Assembly: GCA_964016885.1 (NCBI GenBank)
Contig: OZ024743.1
Coordinates: forward strand, 250,232,001 to 250,296,000
Length of the DNA: 64,000 nucleotides
Source of the DNA: Eledone cirrhosa
Lineage: Eukaryota
Reading direction: 5' to 3'
Of this stretch, positions 16,592 through 63,561 are shown one piece after another; the first letter of the stretch is position 1, and every line of letters starts with the position of its first letter. The notes beneath the pieces were generated by a model, which did no database searches, was not told the DNA's origin, and saw nothing but the letters and a program-made list of their open reading frames with translations. The translations under genes were made by a program, and so were the position numbers.

Positions 16592-16981
16592 AATCATCAT
16601 CACCGTTTTACGCTAGCATGGGTTAGACGGGTTGTCCTGTTGTGGGCAGTGTCCAGTTGGCTGACCTTGTCTTGCTCATACGGGAACTGATTCTGGCTGC
16701 CCTTCCTAACACCAACCTCATTTACAGTGAGTGCTTGGTGCTTTTTTTCCATGGCGCCTAAACGTCTACTTTACAGTGAGTGCGGGGTGCTTTTTTTTTG
16801 CCGTGGCACCTCCACGACCACTTTGCAGTGGAATAATAGGGACCCCAGTCCCTATCATCTCATTTCTATAGCTGAGTAAACTGGAGCAATGTGAAATAAA
16901 GTGTCTTGCTCAAGGAAACAACACAACACCCGGTCTGAGAATTGAACTCACAACCTTTCGATTGCAAGCCCAATGTTCTAG
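16592..16981 (-). mobile_element. SINE family A, head-truncated, with variant or chimeric tail
   Basis: Body matches 2806-3175; tttacagtgagtgc unit duplicated; tail of the acgctagcatgggttagacg type. Confidence 0.85.
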
Positions 16982-20725: not shown

Positions 20726-21121
20726 ATCATCATTTCCTTTTACGTCCACTTTTCCTTGCTTGCAAGGGTGGGACGGGAACTGATTCTGGCTTGATTTCTA
20801 CAGCTGGATGCCCTTCCTAACACCAACCTCATTTACAGTGAGTGCTTGGTGCTTTTTTTCCATGGCGCCTACATTCCACTTTACAGTGTGGGCTGGGTGT
20901 TTTTTGTTTTTTGTTTTTTGCCGTGGCACCTCCATGACCACTTTACAGTGGAATGATAGAGACCCCAGTCCCTATCATCTCATTTCTACAGCTGAGTAAA
21001 CTGGAGCAATGTGAAATAAAGTGTCTTGCTCAAAGAAACAACACATCGCCTGGTCTGAGAATTGAACTCACAACCTTTCAATTGCAAAGCCAATGCTCTA
21101 ACCACTAAGCCATGTGCCTCC
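20726..21121 (-). mobile_element. SINE family A, full length, with duplicated tail unit
   Basis: Matches the inverse of 8731-9070. Confidence 0.92.
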
Positions 21122-42091: not shown

Positions 42092-42637
42092 TATAACAAA
42101 GTGCAGGGCAATAAAGATAGACGGTAGCCACGGAATAGGCAGACCTAGAAAAACCTGGGACGAGCTGATAAACTCCGACCTCACACACTTACACCTCTCC
42201 AAGACAATGTCACTGGACCGAGACCTTTGGCGGTACTCAGTAACAGAGAAGACCCGCCTTGCCAGTAGGCATCTCTAACAAAATACACCCCGTCCCACCA
42301 CCACCACCCCCACCCCATCCACACCACCCCGTCCTATGTATAGTTATGTTGGTGCCGCGCCATCCGGGCCGAAACAAATGAGATCGTGTAGGTGTCACGA
42401 CAAAAAAACACACAGTCCACGCTGTAATGTGGCCGTGTAGGCAACACGGTAAAAACCTCCCAGACCCACACTGTAAATGTGGTTGGTGTTAGGAAGGGCA
42501 TCCAACTGTAGAAAACCTGCCAGACAGTCCTATGCGAGCAAGACAATCACTCTTGCCTCAAGTGGGACTACCCCCGTCCAAACCCATGCAAGCGTGGAAC
42601 ACGGACGTTAAACGTTGATGATGATGATGATGATGAT
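42092..42637 (+). mobile_element. 5'-truncated young RTE copy (last ~61 codons, 3' UTR, (GAT)n)
   Basis: [22 protein letters not shown]...LASRHL* is identical in protein to the intact element's C-terminus. Confidence 0.95.
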
Positions 42638-42843
42638 ACATATATATATATATACATACATATATATATATATACATACATACATACATATATACATATA
42701 CATATACACACATATATATATATACATACATATACATATATATACATACATATATATATACATACATATATATATACATACATACATACATATATATATA
42801 CATACACATATATACACATACACATACACATATATACACATAC

Positions 42844-52130: not shown

Positions 52131-55100
52131 TAGAATAATTGAATTAAGACTAGTTCTAAATAGAACTACTGTAACTATAATATCTGCTTATGCATCTCAA
52201 TCTGGTATACCTGATGTTATAAAGGGCAGGTTCTATGAGATGCTAATGCACACTACCTCCCAAATAACCGACAGTGACTACTTAATCATTGCTGGCGATC
52301 TAAACGGTCACGTTGGACAACATAGTGATGGCTATGGGGTTGGAAATAGAAATGAGGAGGGCTTCAGAATCCTGGAATTCTGTGATGCAAATAGCCCCAC
52401 TATCTGTAACACAAACTTCAAAAAACGTGAAAACCACTTGATCACCTATAGATCAGGGGAACACGCCAGCCAGATAGATTATATCCTTACTAGATGACGG
52501 GACAAAATGTCTGTTGTAAACACTAAATCCCTCCCCCGTGAAGAATGCACCTCCCAACATAGCCTAGTAGTTAGTGACCTCATAGTCAGGAATAGACGTA
52601 CTCGACGACAGAGGAGGCCTACCTTGAGGAGAAGAATATGGAAGTTGAAGGACCCCATAGCCAGTGACAAATTTAAAAGCTTATTATTTGATGCCTTTGA
52701 CAATAAGGAAGAGCAATTAGAGACGTGCAATATAGAGGAACAGTGGCAATTCTCGAAAGTGAACCTGCTGAAAGCAACAGATGAAATCTGTGGCTGGAGC
52801 AGACCTATTGGCAGGAGGAGAGTAACTTGGTGGTGGAAGAGACAATCAAGGCCAAAAAGCAGGCTTGAAAAGTATGGCAGGATGGGGGAAGTAGAGAGCA
52901 CTATCAAGTGGCCAGGAGAGAAGCTAGGAGACAAGTGTACCTTGCAAAAAGGGTAGCAGAGGATAGAAAGTTCAAGCATGTTCTGCAACGTGAGGACCAA
53001 AAACGTGAGGTGTTCAGGATTGCTAGACAATGTGTCAAGGAAAACCGTGATATTGTTGGGGAGAAGTGTGTCCGTAATGATAATGGTGTAGTTGCGCTCA
53101 CTGATACTGATAAGAAGATAGCCTGGAAGTGTCACTACAAGAGACTATTAAATGAGGAGAATAAATGGGAAAAAGATAGTCTGCCCCAAATCGATCCAAT
53201 AGAAGGATCAGCGGTGCAAGTTAAAGGTAGTATAATAAGTAAGGCAATCAAAGATATGAAGACAGGCAAAGCAGCTGGGCCTTTGGAGATAGTTGCTGAG
53301 ATGTTGAAGGCATCTGGTATGGTGGGACACACTATGGTCACCCGTATAGTTAACCAAGTAATACAGAATGGGGTCATACCGAAAAACTGGCGTAGCAGCA
53401 TCACCATTAACTGCTACAAGGGTAAAGGGGATGCTCTCTCGAGAGGAAACTATAGAGGCATTAAGTTAGTTGACCAGGTCATGAAAGTCACAGAAGTCAG
53501 AGAGCGAATTGATCTAGATGAAATGCAGTTTGGGTTTGTGTCAGGTAAAAGTACTACAGACGCTCTTTTCCTTGTACGACAACTACAAGAGAAGTATCTA
53601 GCTAAAAGTAAACCCCTCTACTTAGCTTTTGTAGACCTGGAGAAAGCTTTTGACAGAGTCCCCCGCTCCATTATCTGGTGGGCTCTTAGAAAACTAGGTG
53701 TAGATGAATGGCTTGTGAGAGCTATGCAAGCTATGTATAATGAAACAGTCAGTAAGGTTAGAATTAACAATGAATATTGTGAAGAATTTAGTGTAAAAGT
53801 TGGCGTTCATCAAGGCTCTGTCCTTAGCCCCCTCTTATTTATTATTGCCCTTCAGGCTATAACAGAGGAGTTCAAGACTGGCTGCCCATGGGAACTCCTA
53901 TACGCAGATGATCTAACGCTCATAGCTGAATCAATGGCTGAACTAGAGAAGAAATTCGAAACATGGAAGCATGGTCTAGAATCAAAAGCCTTAAAGTTAA
54001 CTTGTCTAAGACTAAAGTTCTAGTTTGTAATAAGGAAAATAGGGCACAGGTGCCCTCAGGGAAATGGCCATGCTCAGTGTGTAGGAAAGGAGTAGGCAGA
54101 AATTCCATTTTATGTCCCAAATGCAAAGTATGGGTACATAAAAGATGTAGTGGGATCACAGGTAAACTATCTAAGAACGTAGACTTTATATGTGGCCAAT
54201 GCTCAGGTGCAATAAGTAGCAAGTGTCCAAAGGATACTAGCTCATTCTATTGCCCAGATGGTTCTATAGAAATAGTAGACACTTTCCGTTACCTGGGTGA
54301 CGAAATCAGCAGTGGTGGAAGGTGTTCTGAAAGTACAGTAGCCAGAGTCAGAATGGGATGGAAAAAGTTCAGAGAGCTTATACCGCTGTTGGCCACAAAA
54401 GGTTTCTCTCAAAAAGTGAAAGGCAGATTGTATGATGCCTGTATATGAACAGCAATGTAACATGGCAGTGAGACATGGGTATTATGTGCAGAGGACCTGC
54501 GTAGACTGGAAAGGAACGCAGCGTGCATGCACCGTTGGATGTGTAATAGTAATATACGTGAGCGGCAAAGCATAAATGAACTAAATAAGTAATTAGGAAT
54601 AAGAGGGATCAGATGCTGTTTACTTGAGAGAAGACTACGTTGGTATGGTCACGTGATGCGCATGAAAGACGACAGCTGCATAAAAAAGTGCAGGGCGATC
54701 AAAATTGATGGTAGTTACGGAGTAGGTAGACCCAAAAAAACCTGGGATGATCTGATAAATTCCGACCTCACACACTTACACCTCTCTAAGACAATGTCAC
54801 TGGACTGAGATCTTTGGCGCTACGCAGTAATACAGAAGACCCACCTTGCCTATGTACAAAGCGAAACGTTCAGTCAGTAGGCACCTCTTAACCAAATATA
54901 CACCCCAATCCACCACCCCTACCCTATCCTCCCACTCCCACCAACAGCACGAGAAAATGAGATCGAGATCGTGTAGGTGTCACGACAAAAAACACATACA
55001 GTCCACGCTGTAATGTGGTTGTGTAGGTAACACGGTAAAAAGTTCTCAGTTCCACACTGTAAATGTGGTTGGTGTTAGGAAGGGCATCCAGCTGTAGAAA

Positions 55101-55197
55101 ACCTGCCAGATAGTCCTATATGAGCGAGACACAGTCACCCGACAAGCCATGCTAGCGTGGAAAATGGATGTTAAACGAAGATGATGATGATGATGAT
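52131..55197 (+). pseudogene. Older RTE LINE copy (sister subfamily of 59458-62967), 5'-truncated, with stops and frameshifts
   Basis: Collinear APE (AGDLNGHVG, QIDYIL), RT (GVHQGSVLSP, YADD) and PHD-like finger, split across ORFs 52066, 52507, 52908 and 53963; (GAT)n tail. Confidence 0.95.
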
Positions 55198-55205
55198 ATA
55201 TATAT

Positions 55206-55267
55206 ACCGTCCAAACCCACGCAAGCGTGGAAGATGGACGTTAAACAATGATGATGATGATGATGAT
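55206..55267 (+). mobile_element. Ultra-short RTE tail insertion
   Basis: ccgtccaaacccacgcaagcgtggaagatggacgttaaac followed by (GAT)n. Confidence 0.8.
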
Positions 55268-55389: not shown

Positions 55390-56780
55390 TCATCATCATT
55401 TTTACGCCTGGTTTTCCATGTTTGCACGGGTTGGATAAGTCCTTGTCAACACGGCATCTCTCCACTCCTCACAATTCTTTGTCATCTCCTCTGTGAGACT
55501 CAGCAATTTGGGGTCAGCTCTCACCATATCTGCCCAGGTCTTTCTTGGTCTACCTCTACTGTGGCTTCCTTCTACTGACATTTCCTGGCACATCTTCACC
55601 CATCAATCATCGCCCATGTGCATCACATGCCCGTAACAACACAGTCTTCTCACAGTTTCTGTCGAAGTTCATCCAAGCCCCTTCCTTTCTTTCACATTTA
55701 CATTGCACATCCAGCGAAACATGGCTGCTTCATTTTTCTCCAGTTTACACAGGTCTTCTGCAGCCACAGCCCATGTTTCACTACCATGTAGCATCACACT
55801 TCACACACAGGCATCATACAGTCGTCCTTTTGTATAAATAGCAGAAGGTATCAACCACTTCTATGGATCCTTCCTGTGACTTGAAGTGGTTCATAATACT
55901 ACTGCTGTTCCTCTCGATCACTCCTGTGCATCTTCTACATACAAAGTCTTCCTTCCCTGTTAGTCTACCAATTATCCTACTACAACTCTTGTTTACCCAA
56001 GATTTACATTGTGTACATTGTATGGAGTTTATGCCTACTCCATTTCTACATATGGAGCAGCGCCACTTCCTCTAAGGGATCGAGATCCTGTCGTCTTTCC
56101 TATTCGCTTGTACTTTAGTTTTGGCTAAATTTACTATCAGATCTTTTGATAGTCGGAACTTATTTTTTATTTCTTTTATGTGTTCAGCTTTAAGGACCAA
56201 ATCATCGGCACAGAGAATTTCCCATGGACTGCCAGTTTTAAACTCCTTTGTTATAACTTGGAGAACTATGATAAACTCCTACTCAAACTTGGAGAGCCCT
56301 GATAAACTCCTACTTTAACTTTGAATTCCTCACTAAACTCACTTTACTGACAGCTCCTCTGGTCTCTTTCATCAGTACCTGAAGTTGCCTGTAAAAGCCG
56401 CTCATAAAACCTGACCTTTTGGTTTTTACTCCGTCCTGTCTGTGGAGCAAAAGTAGGTGTAACAGTCCCTATTCTAATGATCATTCTGTCACTTATTCTA
56501 ACTACCTCTATCACCTTATCATTTTTTCAGCTTGTAAGATGCCTCCACCTCCTACCCAGTAGAGTCTAACTCTGCTGTTTTCCTGTGATTAATCTTGCCG
56601 AGCCACCCCTCCATTTCACTTCTTGTACACAGCATACATCTACTTCTCTCAAACAATTCCACAATTTCACCTGATTTACTTTTCAGGGTACCAACATTGA
56701 GCGTGGCAATCCTGGGATTTGTACCTTGACAGTTGTTATTACTTCCATGAGTAGAAGTTCTATGTATCTGAAAGGTAAAA
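55390..56780 (-). pseudogene. Ancient RTE copy with multiple internal deletions
   Basis: Fragments RIATLNVGTLKSK, FKTGSPWEILCADD, PHD remnants and RGRPRKTW. Confidence 0.85.
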
Positions 56781-57011
56781 AGTTTGTGCAAATTGCTTGA
56801 GGACAGTCGAGGGGTTCTTGCACATGACTATTGTTTAGGTGTTTCTGGCTGGATGCCCTTCCTATCACCAACAACTTTATAGCATGGACTGGGTGCACTA
56901 TTTGTGCTACCAGCACTAGAGAGATTGTCTTACTGGACTCAAGAGTTTTCTCCATAGTGAGTTGCCTTCACTAGAGCTTATGGAAGCCTATGTCTGCTCC
57001 GTGCACTCATT

Positions 57012-57190
57012 ATTAATCGGTAGAGAGTCGGACGCCATGCTTTGACGAATAGAGTTACAGCCCTTGCCATTCTGAGTTCAAATCCCGCCGAGGTTAACTT
57101 TGTCTTTCATCCTTACGGGGTCGATAAAATAAAGTACCAGTAATGCACTGGGTAATTGCTGGCCTTGTGCCTAAAGTAGAAACAATTATT
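57012..57190 (+). mobile_element. SINE family B
   Basis: gagttcaaatcccgccgaggttaac..tttcatccttacggggtcgataaaataaagtacc..gtagaaacaattatt. Confidence 0.88.
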
Positions 57191-59310: not shown

Positions 59311-59457
59311 TACTGTGTGTGTGTATATGTAAGATGTAGGAATGGTTGCGCTGTTAAGGAATTCATTTTGCATCCACATAGTACCCTTCTATAATAGCCT
59401 CAGGTTGACTAATGCCATGTGTGGTAAACTTTCAAGTGTTTGTTGGTTTATATATAT

Positions 59458-62400
59458 CATCATCATCATCATCATCAACGTTTAACGTCCGTGTTCCACG
59501 CTTGCATGGGTTTGGACGGGGGTAGTCCCACTTGAGGCAAGAGTGATTGTCTTGCTCGCATAGGACTGTCTGGCAGGTTTTCTACAGTTGGATGCCCTTC
59601 CTAACACCAACCACATTTACAGTGTGGGTCTGGGAGGTTTTTACCGTGTTGCCTACACGGCCACATTACAGCGTGGACTGTGTGTTTTTTGTCGTGACAC
59701 CTACACGATCTCATTTGTTTCGGCCTGGATGGCGCGGCACCAACATAACTTTACATAGAACGGGGTGGTGTGGATGGGGTGGGGGTGGCGGCGGGAGGGG
59801 TGTATTTTGTTAGAGATGCCTACTGGCAAGGCGGGTCTTCTCTGTTACTGAGTACCGCCAAAGGTCACGGTCCAGTGACATTGTCTTGGAGAGGTGTAAG
59901 TGTGTGAGGTCGGAGTTTATCAGCTCATCCCATGTTTTTCTAGGTCTGCCTATTCCGTGGCTACCGTCTATCTTTATTGCCCTGCACTTTGTAATACAGC
60001 TATCGACTTTCATGCGCATCACGTGTCCATACCAACGCAGCCTTCTCTCGAGTAAACAACATCTGATCCCTCTTATCTCTAATTTTTTCCTTAGTTCGTT
60101 TATGCTTTGCCGTTCACGTATATTACTGTTACACATCCAGCGGAGCATGCAAGCTTCGTTCCTCTCTAGTCTGCGTATATCCTCTGCACACAATGCCCAG
60201 GTCTCACTACCATGCAACATTGCTGTTCGTATGCAGGCATCGTACAACCTGCCTTTCATTTTTAGGGAGAACCCTTTAGCAGCTAATAGTGGTATAAGCT
60301 CTCTGAACTTTTTCCAACCAGTTCTGACTCTAGCTACAGTACTTTCAGAGCACCCTCCCCCACTGCTGATTTTATCGCCCAGGTAACGGAAGCTGTCCAC
60401 TATTTCTATAAAACCCTCTGCGCAATTGAAAGAGCTAGTATTTTGTGGGCACTTGCTGCTACTTATTGCACCAGAACACCGGCCACATGTAAAGTCTATG
60501 TTCTTAGTTAGCTTACCTGTGATCCCACTACATCTTTTATGCACCCATACTTTGCATTTAGGACATAAGATGGAGTTTCTACCTACGCCTTTCCTACATA
60601 CCGAGCACGACCATTTCCCAGAAGGGACCGCCGCCTTGTTTTCTTTCCTACAAACTAGAACTTTGGTCTTAGCCAGGTTAATTTTAAGTCCTTTTGACTC
60701 TAGGCCGTGCTTCCATGTTTGGAATTTCTTCTCTAGCTCGGCCATTGATTCCGCTATGAGTGTCAGGTCGTCTGCGTATAGGAGTTCCCATGGGCAGCCT
60801 GTCTTGAACTCCTCTGTTATAGCCTGAAGGGCAATAATAAATAGTAGGGGGCTGAGAACAGAGCCCTGATGGACGCCAACTTTTACGCTAAACTCTTCAC
60901 TATATTCGTTGTTAATTCTAACCTTGCTGACTGTTTCTTTATACATGGCTTGTATAGCCCTCACAAGCCATTCGTCAACGCCTAGTTTTCTAAGAGCCCA
61001 CCAGATAATGGAGCGGGGGACTCTGTCGAAGGCTTTCTCCAGGTCGACAAAAGCTAAGTAGAGGGGTTTACCTTTAGCTAGGTACTTCTCCTGTAGTTGT
61101 CGTACTATGAAAAGAGCGTCTGTGGTGCTTTTGCCTGACACAAACCCGAACTGCATTTCATCTAGATCAATTCTCTCTCTGATTAGTTGCGCTATTACTT
61201 TTTCTGTGACCTTCATGACCTGGTCGATTAATTTAATGCCTCTATAGTTACTCCTATCTAGGGCGTCTCCTTTACCCTTATAACAGTTAACGATGATGCT
61301 GCTATGCCAGTCCTTCGGAACAACCCCATTCTGTACGACTTGGTTAACTATGCGGGTGACCATGGTGTGTCCCACCGTGCCAGATGCCTTCAGCATCTCA
61401 GCAACTATTTCCGAAGGCCCAGCCGCCTTACCAGTCTTCATATCCTTGATTGCCTTACTTATTATACTCCCCTCGACTAACACTGCTGGTCCCTCTATCG
61501 GGTCGATATGGGGGAGACTGTCTTTCTCCCATTTATTCTCCTCATTTAGTAGCCTTTCATAGTGACACTTCCAAGCTACCTTCTTATCAGTGTCGGTGAT
61601 GGCAAGTATGCCATCATCGTTAAGTACACACTTCTCCCCGACAATATCACGGTTTTCCTTGACGCATTGCCTGGCAATCCTGAACACCTCACGTTTTTGG
61701 TCATCGCGTTGTAGAACATGCTTGAACTTTCTTTCCTCAGCTTCCCTTCTTGCTAAGTACACTTCTCTCCTAGCTTCCCTCCTGGCCACTTGATAGTCTA
61801 CTCTACTTCCCCCATCCCGCCATACTTTCCAAGCCTGCTTTTTGGCCTTAATTGACCCCTCCACCTTACTGTTCCACCACCATGTTACTCTCCTCCTGCC
61901 TACAGGCCTGCTCCAGCCACAGACTTCGTCTGTCGCCAACAGCAGGTTTGCTTTCAGAAATTTCCACTGTCCCTCTATATTGTCCGATTCTAGATGCTCT
62001 TCCTTACTGTCGAAAGCATCAAGTAATATGCTTTGAAATTTATTTCTGGCTGTGGGGTCCTTTAGTTTCCATATTTTCCTCCTGAGGATAGTCCTCTTCT
62101 GCTGTCGGGTGCGTCTCGTCCTGACTATGAGGTCGCTAATTATCAGTCTATGTTGGGAGGTGCATTCTTCATGGGGGAGGGATTTAGTGTTTACAACAGA
62201 CACTCTGTCACGTCTTCTGGTAAGGATATAATCTACCTGGCTTGTGTGTTCCCCGGATCTATAGGTAATCAGGTGATTGTCACGTTTTTTGAAGTTAGTG
62301 TTACAGATAGTTAGGTTATTTGCATCACAGTATTCCAGAATTCTGGAGCCTTCCTCATTTCTAGTACCAAACCCATAGCCTCCATGGATTTCGTCATAGC

Positions 62401-62967
62401 CGTCACAATGTTGTCCAACGTGACCATTTAGGTCGCCTGCAATAATTATATAGTCACTGTCAGATATTTGGGAGGTAGTTAGCAACAGTGTCTCATAGAA
62501 TCTGTCTTTTATAGTGCCGGGCAGTCCGGATTGGGGTGCGTACGCAGATATTACTGTCACCGTAGTTCTATTGAGGACAAGTCTTATTTTAATTATTCTG
62601 TCGTTCACTCTATTTACGTCTATTATCTTATCTGCCCACTTTTCTGCTACCATGATTCCTACTCCACCCAGCCCATCGTCGTTTCCCACCCAGAAAAGCT
62701 TATAACATCGTTTTTTACCCTCAATGAATCTAGCAGACCCACCCCTCCACCTGGTCTCTTGAATACAACAAACATCGACCTCCTTACGTTCAAGCATTTC
62801 TACAACCTCGTTAGCGCGACCCTTTAGGGTGCCTACATTTATGGTACCAACTCTGAAGTTTTGGGTTGCGTTTGGAGGGTGGAGGTGGTGGGGGGCGGGA
62901 GGAGATAGGGTTATGTTAGCCATCCGCGGACGAAACAAAGAGGAGTGCTCGCATTCTCGTCCACGAG
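59458..62967 (-). mobile_element. Apparently intact RTE-clade LINE inserted in (TA)n
   Basis: Uninterrupted ORF, ~350-nt 3' UTR ending in (GAT)n, TA runs at both boundaries, and near-identical truncated copies at 1, 42092 and 51129. Confidence 0.96.
59810..62923 (-). CDS. RTE ORF (1037 aa from MANITLSP): APE endonuclease, reverse transcriptase and PHD-type zinc finger
   Basis: GTINVGTL, IQETRW, AGDLNGHVG, QVDYIL, SQH; NYRGIKL, FVDLEKAFD, GVHQGSVLSP, YADD; C4HC3 finger; RYLG, RGRP-like GRPRKTW. Confidence 0.95.
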   Translation of the reverse strand: MANITLSPPAPHHLHPPNATQNFRVGTINVGTLKGRANEVVEMLERKEVDVCCIQETRWRGGSARFIEGKKRCYKLFWVGNDDGLGGVGIMVAEKWADKIIDVNRVNDRIIKIRLVLNRTTVTVISAYAPQSGLPGTIKDRFYETLLLTTSQISDSDYIIIAGDLNGHVGQHCDGYDEIHGGYGFGTRNEEGSRILEYCDANNLTICNTNFKKRDNHLITYRSGEHTSQVDYILTRRRDRVSVVNTKSLPHEECTSQHRLIISDLIVRTRRTRQQKRTILRRKIWKLKDPTARNKFQSILLDAFDSKEEHLESDNIEGQWKFLKANLLLATDEVCGWSRPVGRRRVTWWWNSKVEGSIKAKKQAWKVWRDGGSRVDYQVARREARREVYLARREAEERKFKHVLQRDDQKREVFRIARQCVKENRDIVGEKCVLNDDGILAITDTDKKVAWKCHYERLLNEENKWEKDSLPHIDPIEGPAVLVEGSIISKAIKDMKTGKAAGPSEIVAEMLKASGTVGHTMVTRIVNQVVQNGVVPKDWHSSIIVNCYKGKGDALDRSNYRGIKLIDQVMKVTEKVIAQLIRERIDLDEMQFGFVSGKSTTDALFIVRQLQEKYLAKGKPLYLAFVDLEKAFDRVPRSIIWWALRKLGVDEWLVRAIQAMYKETVSKVRINNEYSEEFSVKVGVHQGSVLSPLLFIIALQAITEEFKTGCPWELLYADDLTLIAESMAELEKKFQTWKHGLESKGLKINLAKTKVLVCRKENKAAVPSGKWSCSVCRKGVGRNSILCPKCKVWVHKRCSGITGKLTKNIDFTCGRCSGAISSSKCPQNTSSFNCAEGFIEIVDSFRYLGDKISSGGGCSESTVARVRTGWKKFRELIPLLAAKGFSLKMKGRLYDACIRTAMLHGSETWALCAEDIRRLERNEACMLRWMCNSNIRERQSINELRKKLEIRGIRCCLLERRLRWYGHVMRMKVDSCITKCRAIKIDGSHGIGRPRKTWDELINSDLTHLHLSKTMSLDRDLWRYSVTEKTRLASRHL

Positions 62968-63226: not shown

Positions 63227-63561
63227 GCTTAGTGGTTAGAGCATTGGCCTTGCAATCAAAAGGTTGTGAGTTCAATTCTCAGACCGGGTGATGTGTTGTT
63301 TCCTTGAGCAAGGCACTTTATTTCACATTGCTCCAGTTTACTCAGCTGTAGAAATGAGATGATAGGGATTGGGGTCCCTATCATTCCACTGCAAAGTGGT
63401 CGTGGAGGTGCCACGGCAAAAAAGCACCCAGCACTCACTGTAAATGAGGTTGGTGTTAGGAAGGGCATCCAGCTGTAGAAATCAAGCCAGAATCAGTTCC
63501 CGTCCCACCCTTGCAAGCAGGGAAAAGTGGACGTAAATGAGATGATGATGATGATGATGAT
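63227..63561 (+). mobile_element. SINE family A, missing the first ~11 nt
   Basis: Matches 8742-9055; (GAT)n tail. Confidence 0.92.

Follow-up and report, generated by a model that had tools for sequence, protein, structure and literature searches.

The window, the whole 64,000-nt stretch of Eledone cirrhosa DNA analysed here, carries on its minus strand a LINE copy in which a single ORF joins an APE-type endonuclease and a reverse transcriptase, as indicated by Pfam, with a PHD-like zinc finger (residues 773-816) located C-terminal to the reverse transcriptase domain (Table 1). The Pfam matches of this ORF included no RNase H family, and translation of 600 nt upstream gave short frames only, with no separate long ORF1. 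RTE-clade LINEs have neither a separate long ORF1 nor an RNase H domain, and the element, named RTE in an earlier note on this DNA, is one that we take to belong to this clade. A microsatellite (GAT)n 3′ tail and frequent 5′ truncation were both seen in the family, whose ORF is approximately 1,060 aa long and whose 3′ UTR, approximately 350 nt, is an array of units of about 48 nt. The window copy is itself 5′-truncated; its 5′ end, at 62967, lies 44 nt upstream of the second in-frame AUG and abuts a (TA)n run. The family is abundant in this genome of 3 Gb and is young: of 20 sampled copies, 19 were near full length, and 18 of these were >99% identical to the window copy. Rfam searches of six loci returned microsatellite noise only, and the output of a generic repeat finder on the window was dominated by (TA)n.

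Table 1. Features of the LINE copy and of related copies in the window
Feature	Position	Strand	Remarks
Intact ORF from second in-frame AUG	59810..62923	-	APE-type endonuclease, reverse transcriptase, PHD-like finger
Pfam domains of the ORF			Exo_endo_phos, residues 27-244; RVT_1, 557-757; PHD, 773-816
5′ arm	62910..62942	-	33 nt; probably codons 17-28 in the full-length ORF; includes second AUG (62921-62923)
3′ arm	59710..59749	-	40 nt; 7-nt bulge at 59732-59738
Further units of 3′-UTR array	59590..59712	-	About 48 nt each; common to other families and a SINE-like repeat
(GAT)n tail	59457..59478	-	Microsatellite
N-terminal coding remnant	62943..62967	-	Window copy
Predicted local hairpin	62924..62966	-	12 bp, 62955-62966 with 62924-62935; z −2.3
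5′-truncated copy	42092..42644	+	97% identical; 3′ arm at 42343-42382, one-extra-pair variant
Older sister copy	52132..55208	+	82% identical; subfamily with 3′ arm deleted, junction near 54945

Several neighbouring repeats were recorded. A short repeat at 16694-16817, 20785-20907 and 63389-63491 of the window, presumably a SINE partner, has in common with the LINE the tail that follows the 3′ arm, but lacks the arm itself. In more distant families, the conserved 3′-tail motif of the present family was located in direct orientation upstream of the ORF (window 56300-57100 on the minus strand, L128:600-720, L223:3900-3950 and L174:1790-1880), and this motif gave no match in Rfam or in the literature. 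In family E, an outgroup approximately 73% identical to the present family, at least 29 copies, all on the plus strand and 6-16 kb apart, formed a tandem amplification containing the LINE (G000:C25:4,877,677-5,202,282). The 5′ UTR of this family contains a 49-nt unit expanded to tandem arrays, with more than 30 units in one copy (G000:C18:12,425,948-12,427,786; also L275, L279 and L280).

The two arms of the window copy are complementary to each other, and both were present at the positions and with the letters quoted in the earlier note. The predicted duplex (62910-62942 with 59710-59749) had 30 bp, involving 30 of the 33 bases of the 5′ arm, three pairs more than the extent of about 27 bp proposed in that note, with an energy of −35.3 kcal/mol, a 7-nt bulge and short, interrupted helices of 11 and 12-15 bp. 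In the 4,257-nt full copy, the 5′ arm begins at nt 779, and 246 nt separate the 3′ arm from the end of the tail; at 778 and 246 nt from the respective ends, the arms do not fit the description of subterminal inverted repeats given to them before. As judged by eye, the 3′ arm is likely the degenerate first unit of the 3′-UTR array. Poor pairing with the 5′ arm was predicted for the other units (−12 to −14 kcal/mol), and family E was found to possess the homologous 5′ stretch and to lack the 3′-arm unit.

Comparison with shuffled sequences, a check suggested in the earlier note, gave a divided result. The arm pair was the best 3′UTR-to-body match in the full copy, yet 41 of 600 dinucleotide shuffles scored as high in subfamily A, to which the window copy belongs, so that a single copy alone fails to establish more-than-chance pairing. 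The corresponding counts were 21/600 for C1, 161/600 for G, 87/600 for G1 and 502/600 for L224, with p values ranging from 0.035 to 0.27 in A, C1, G and G1. An antisense match in family E (−36 kcal/mol) was considered as an equivalent of the arm pair and rejected, since 428/1,000 and 660/1,000 shuffles were as good; a search with the tail of family E gave no match.

About ten subfamilies of this genome were sampled through successive searches, and their order was derived from two trees, for the 5′ and 3′ parts of the ORF, containing representative copies only, some of them chimeric. The ladder obtained led from an oldest group through G1, G2 and C1/C2 to C3 and I, G, GG and A; lineage B branched off to the side. 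Predicted duplex energies were −26.6 (G1), −35.5 (C2), −42.7 (C3), −30.3 (I), −32.3 (G), −36.7 (GG), −35.3 (A) and −20.2 (B2) kcal/mol. Complementarity was retained across subfamilies, and the bulge was kept in every one of them. From G1 to A, 14 substitutions occurred in the 73 nt of the arms, including two double-sided swaps, in which A-U became G-C (arm position 7) and C-G (position 14), and one-sided intermediates of both were present in sampled C1 and C2 copies; bases changed one at a time, through non-pairing intermediates. The other changes comprised two pairs gained from mismatches and one from a wobble, one pair turned into a wobble and one uncompensated loss, and five of the 14 fell in the 10 unpaired positions. 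Among the chimeric copies, L092, L077 and L284 with L314 combine the 5′ part of one subfamily with the body or 3′ end of another.

Because the arm pair had been picked for its present strength, the random-substitution test was run backwards, with a fixed pairing register drawn from the same sequences as those tested. Starting from the arms of A, 29 of 31 pairs were retained over 14 substitutions; of 2,500 runs under each of two nulls, 1 and 4 equalled this. The result was weaker for C3 back to G1 (for pairs, 20 and 148 of 2,500 runs; for energy, 104 and 926), and changes after C3 fitted neutral decay (635-1,493 of 3,000 under a same-type null). Forward simulation, begun at the oldest group and taken as far as C2 or C3, gave 0/3,000; it was set aside as main evidence, since choosing the pair by its present strength biases the result. 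Compensation was seen over the long G1-A path and not over the recent path, and the large young subfamilies contained uncompensated breaks in the pairing. In lineage B, 5 nt of the 3′ arm were lost first and then the whole arm; after this deletion of the partner, two formerly fixed positions of the 5′ arm changed. Selection on the pairing looks episodic. The inverted repeat is real and is older than the earlier note supposed; the covariation sought there in sister subfamilies was obtained in part, complementarity being kept with double-sided changes.

The two other copies in the window agreed with what had been noticed before. The extra pair in the copy at 42343 was confirmed, and this variant represents a separate small subfamily (7/100 among the first arms listed) in which the 5′ arm differs too; the sister copy was confirmed to lack the 3′ arm in the region 54900-54970, through a deletion common to its subfamily. 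A fully compensated 3′ variant in L065 was rejected, being found in one copy only. Runs under 15 other organism labels contained words of the element, and in four of them some contigs were 97-100% identical to it over 160-580 nt. Common 3′-arm variants in contigs from other organisms were located in the bulge (59732, 59733 and 59735) and at 59727; they were unphased and resembled the same subfamilies, and are thus not independent evidence.

Cofolding of 500-nt 5′ and approximately 490-nt 3′ windows, which gives predictions for naked RNA, placed the duplex as dominant in C1, C3 and GG (mean pairing probability 0.72-0.93), and the ensembles of A, G, I, G1 and B2 lacked it. When the windows were made slightly shorter, imposing the duplex was free of cost in C3 and in a second G1 copy and carried a penalty of 2.3 kcal/mol in G, 4.2 in I, 6.3 in GG and 21.2 in A; the folding results are thus window-dependent. 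In A, the local 12-bp hairpin was predicted to outcompete the duplex, in the full-length fold as well, which does not contain the duplex.

The earlier note had proposed that the duplex buries the start codon, taken to be the second AUG (the AUG of MANITL). Full copies contain an in-frame AUG 23 codons upstream of it, with ten further AUGs upstream of that one. This upstream AUG was retained across subfamilies; of the 65 copies resolved, which fall into several length classes, 62 had a spacing between it and the second AUG that is divisible by three (6 of 71 rows were unresolved); further upstream of the first in-frame AUG, spacings in all frames occurred. The second codon was ACG in 29 of 76 sampled copies and an AUG within the helix in 44 of 76 (4 of 80 were unreadable). 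The conserved upstream AUG and the frequent ACG lead us to take the former as the probable start codon, so that the 5′ arm, lying downstream of it, would correspond to codons 17-28; the AUG of MANITL is probably not the initiator, and the true start thus appears to lie elsewhere than had been assumed. A short out-of-frame upstream ORF (62915-62958, minus strand), the stop of which overlaps the second AUG, was rejected as a candidate feature, being lost in lineage B. In the older subfamilies (L219, L134 and L087), a local hairpin was predicted in which the 5′ arm pairs with the very region of the upstream AUG. Pairing over the long range would undo this hairpin, so that a switch of opposite sign is possible according to the fold predictions.

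A hotspot of 5′ breakpoints was observed just upstream of the 5′ arm. Its limits were suggested by 29 copies, the window copy excluded, of which 4 end 44-69 nt upstream of the second AUG, and were tested in 80 others picked by a downstream anchor. Among these 80 copies of the strong-pairing lineage, 1 ended downstream of −15, 19 between −15 and −72, 3 between −73 and −200, and 57 beyond, as was also checked by eye. Thus 19 of the 23 breakpoints within +60 to −200 fell in −15 to −72 (the 58-nt interval upstream of the arm), with a binomial p of 1e-9, or 2e-8 with three neighbouring copies merged; the break of the window copy at 62967 falls inside the same interval. The counts in the same bins were 3, 3, 4 and 19 for lineage B (29 copies, one tandem duplicate dropped) and 1, 2, 6 and 21 for family E (30 copies). 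The shape of the distribution differed from that in the weak-arm or no-arm relatives (19/23 versus 5/19; one-sided Fisher approximately 3e-4, calculated by hand, with 5′ ends less well mapped in older families), and the share of copies ending in the hotspot was not significantly above the controls (19/79 versus 3/26, p 0.27, and 2/29, p 0.056). Synthesis had gone beyond the arm before it ended at these breakpoints, so that simple stalling at the helix does not explain them. The majority of insertions were located in (TA)n runs, as seen at the 5′ junctions.

Counts with exact patterns gave 9,605 A-lineage 3′ arms (15,651 with a looser pattern), 1,158 copies reaching the endonuclease start and 297 deletion junctions at which the 3′ arm is lost. 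There were 176 B-type 5′ arms, and 26 of the first 100 listed, counted by eye, were of the type of the deletion subfamily. The near-full-length share was approximately 12% with the arm versus 15% without it, the patterns matching the subfamilies inexactly, so that there is no sign of a gain, and the earlier suggestion that cyclisation favours full-length templates is not supported. Judged from these counts the pairing is dispensable, the subfamily without the 3′ arm having made about 300 copies, with mobilisation in trans possible.

A function of arm pairing is no more than plausible. What the analysis demonstrates is the complementarity of the arms, their covariation, their position downstream of the likely start codon and the hotspot. 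We tentatively favour, at somewhat short of an even chance, the reading that the arms are a co-evolving complementary pair, likely pairing in RNA, that serves as a weak and dispensable switch from translation to template. Pairing would loop the transcript and bring the 3′ tail to codons 17-28. The duplex would be melted by ribosomes that start 49 nt upstream of it, would therefore form only on RNA out of translation and, on such RNA, would act as a weak switch between translation and template use; it is possible that this switch acts on codons 17-28 and not on the initiator. The leader upstream of the duplex would stay exposed or be joined early, yielding the hotspot. Closure of the duplex over the start codon to repress initiation, the model of the earlier note, is very improbable: the second AUG lies within the helix in the 44 copies mentioned above, and hotspot-truncated copies such as that of the window keep it together with the whole downstream ORF, but the upstream AUG is conserved in frame and the second codon is often ACG. 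Least probable of all, to a degree that makes it hardly credible, is a role as a handle in A-to-I editing or in silencing by small RNAs; it would suit a duplex of about 30 predicted base pairs, but the helices are short and interrupted, and the pairing was strengthened in the lineage with the greatest expansion, opposite to what is predicted for a silencing target.

Chance followed by drift is an unlikely but serious competitor. According to this explanation, the repeat unit and a loosely constrained N-terminal stretch became complementary by luck, peaked and are now decaying, and the hotspot arose from an internal transcription start or (TA)n microhomology. It is consistent with the scan null in four subfamilies, the neutral-looking recent changes, the dispensable 3′ arm, the outcompeted duplex in the window's subfamily and the location of several junctions at an ATAAAG motif beside TA runs. 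The backward test (1-4 of 2,500) and the two double-sided swaps argue against it; moreover, the upstream 128 nt are also TA-rich in places, yet received 3 breakpoints only, and lineage B carries the same ATAAAG motif. Pairing at the DNA level with no selected function was judged less probable still. Here, a cDNA end past the 5′ arm would fold back on the 3′-arm copy about 250 nt from the insertion nick, favouring early 5′ joining, hence the hotspot, and occasional templated correction between the arms, hence the covariation. A stalled enzyme would stop at the 3′ edge of the arm. The breakpoints lie instead just beyond the arm in the direction of synthesis, with 1 of 23 downstream, as this explanation expects; the competing hairpin poses no obstacle to it, no RNA duplex being necessary, and the chimeric copies demonstrate template switching. 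However, single-base changes via non-pairing intermediates and a bulge kept in every subfamily are unlike copied tracts, cDNA normally remains RNA-bound, and none of the 5′ ends examined was seen to carry an inverted-tail junction.

The favoured reading, a weak translation-to-template switch, has a stronger form, which we regard as rather doubtful, in which the LINE lineage made a cyclisation switch from one unit of the 3′-UTR array and tuned it base by base against the N-terminal codons, the loop gating translation versus template use and fixing the break sites. The present system offers a defined pair of 33 and 40 nt, natural variants whose predicted duplex energies span about −20 to −43 kcal/mol, a sharp hotspot and a naturally occurring deletion, so that two questions, how LINE RNA passes from translation to copying and why most copies are 5′-truncated, become testable with swap mutants.

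Inverted similarity near both ends of the truncated window copy recalls the terminal inverted repeats of DNA transposons, but the arms are not terminal, are imperfect and bulged, and are missing from most copies. The retrotransposon Ty1 belongs to the LTR elements and is primed by a tRNA within particles; a LINE primes at its target site, with no strand transfer requiring the ends together. A literature search that included cDNA fold-back, with subscription papers largely outside its coverage, found no long-range pairing element of this kind in a LINE among the papers listed. The described element RTE-2_OV has an ORF of 1,109 aa and a 3′ UTR that is mostly microsatellite, and resembles the present family in its one ORF with endonuclease, reverse transcriptase and zinc finger, its long 5′ UTR and its 3′-end microsatellite; by description, the basis of this comparison, it differs from the present family with its ORF of about 1,060 aa and 350-nt UTR with a 48-nt array, and the accessible text mentions no 5′-3′ pairing (PMC9115989). 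A further paper states, in its accessible part, that the study describing RTE-2_OV gave no sequences of its elements (PMC13282606).

As far as the accessible portions of the sources describe them, two other systems work in the way that the duplex would. In the Ty1 CYC5/CYC3 pair, as in the present case, a retrotransposon RNA has long-range 5′-3′ pairing set against local structure (PMC7969010). The UAR/DAR/CS elements of flaviviruses share with the arms the complementarity of a 5′ and a 3′ stretch close to the start codon, the competition from local hairpins and a proposed translation/template switch (PMC6765113). Their end pairing inhibits initiation and is essential, as shown by probing and swap mutants (PMC6765113), whereas that of the LINE is predicted only, is dispensable, lies about 780 nt from the 5′ end and belongs to a DNA-inserting element. 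Since the arm-less subfamily, with its 297 exact junction matches, multiplied without the pairing, the LINE duplex is not filed as a member of the cyclisation elements. If the stronger form were true, a non-LTR retrotransposon would for the first time be seen to possess an end-joining element like those of flaviviruses or Ty1, and the history of this element could be read from thousands of genomic copies.
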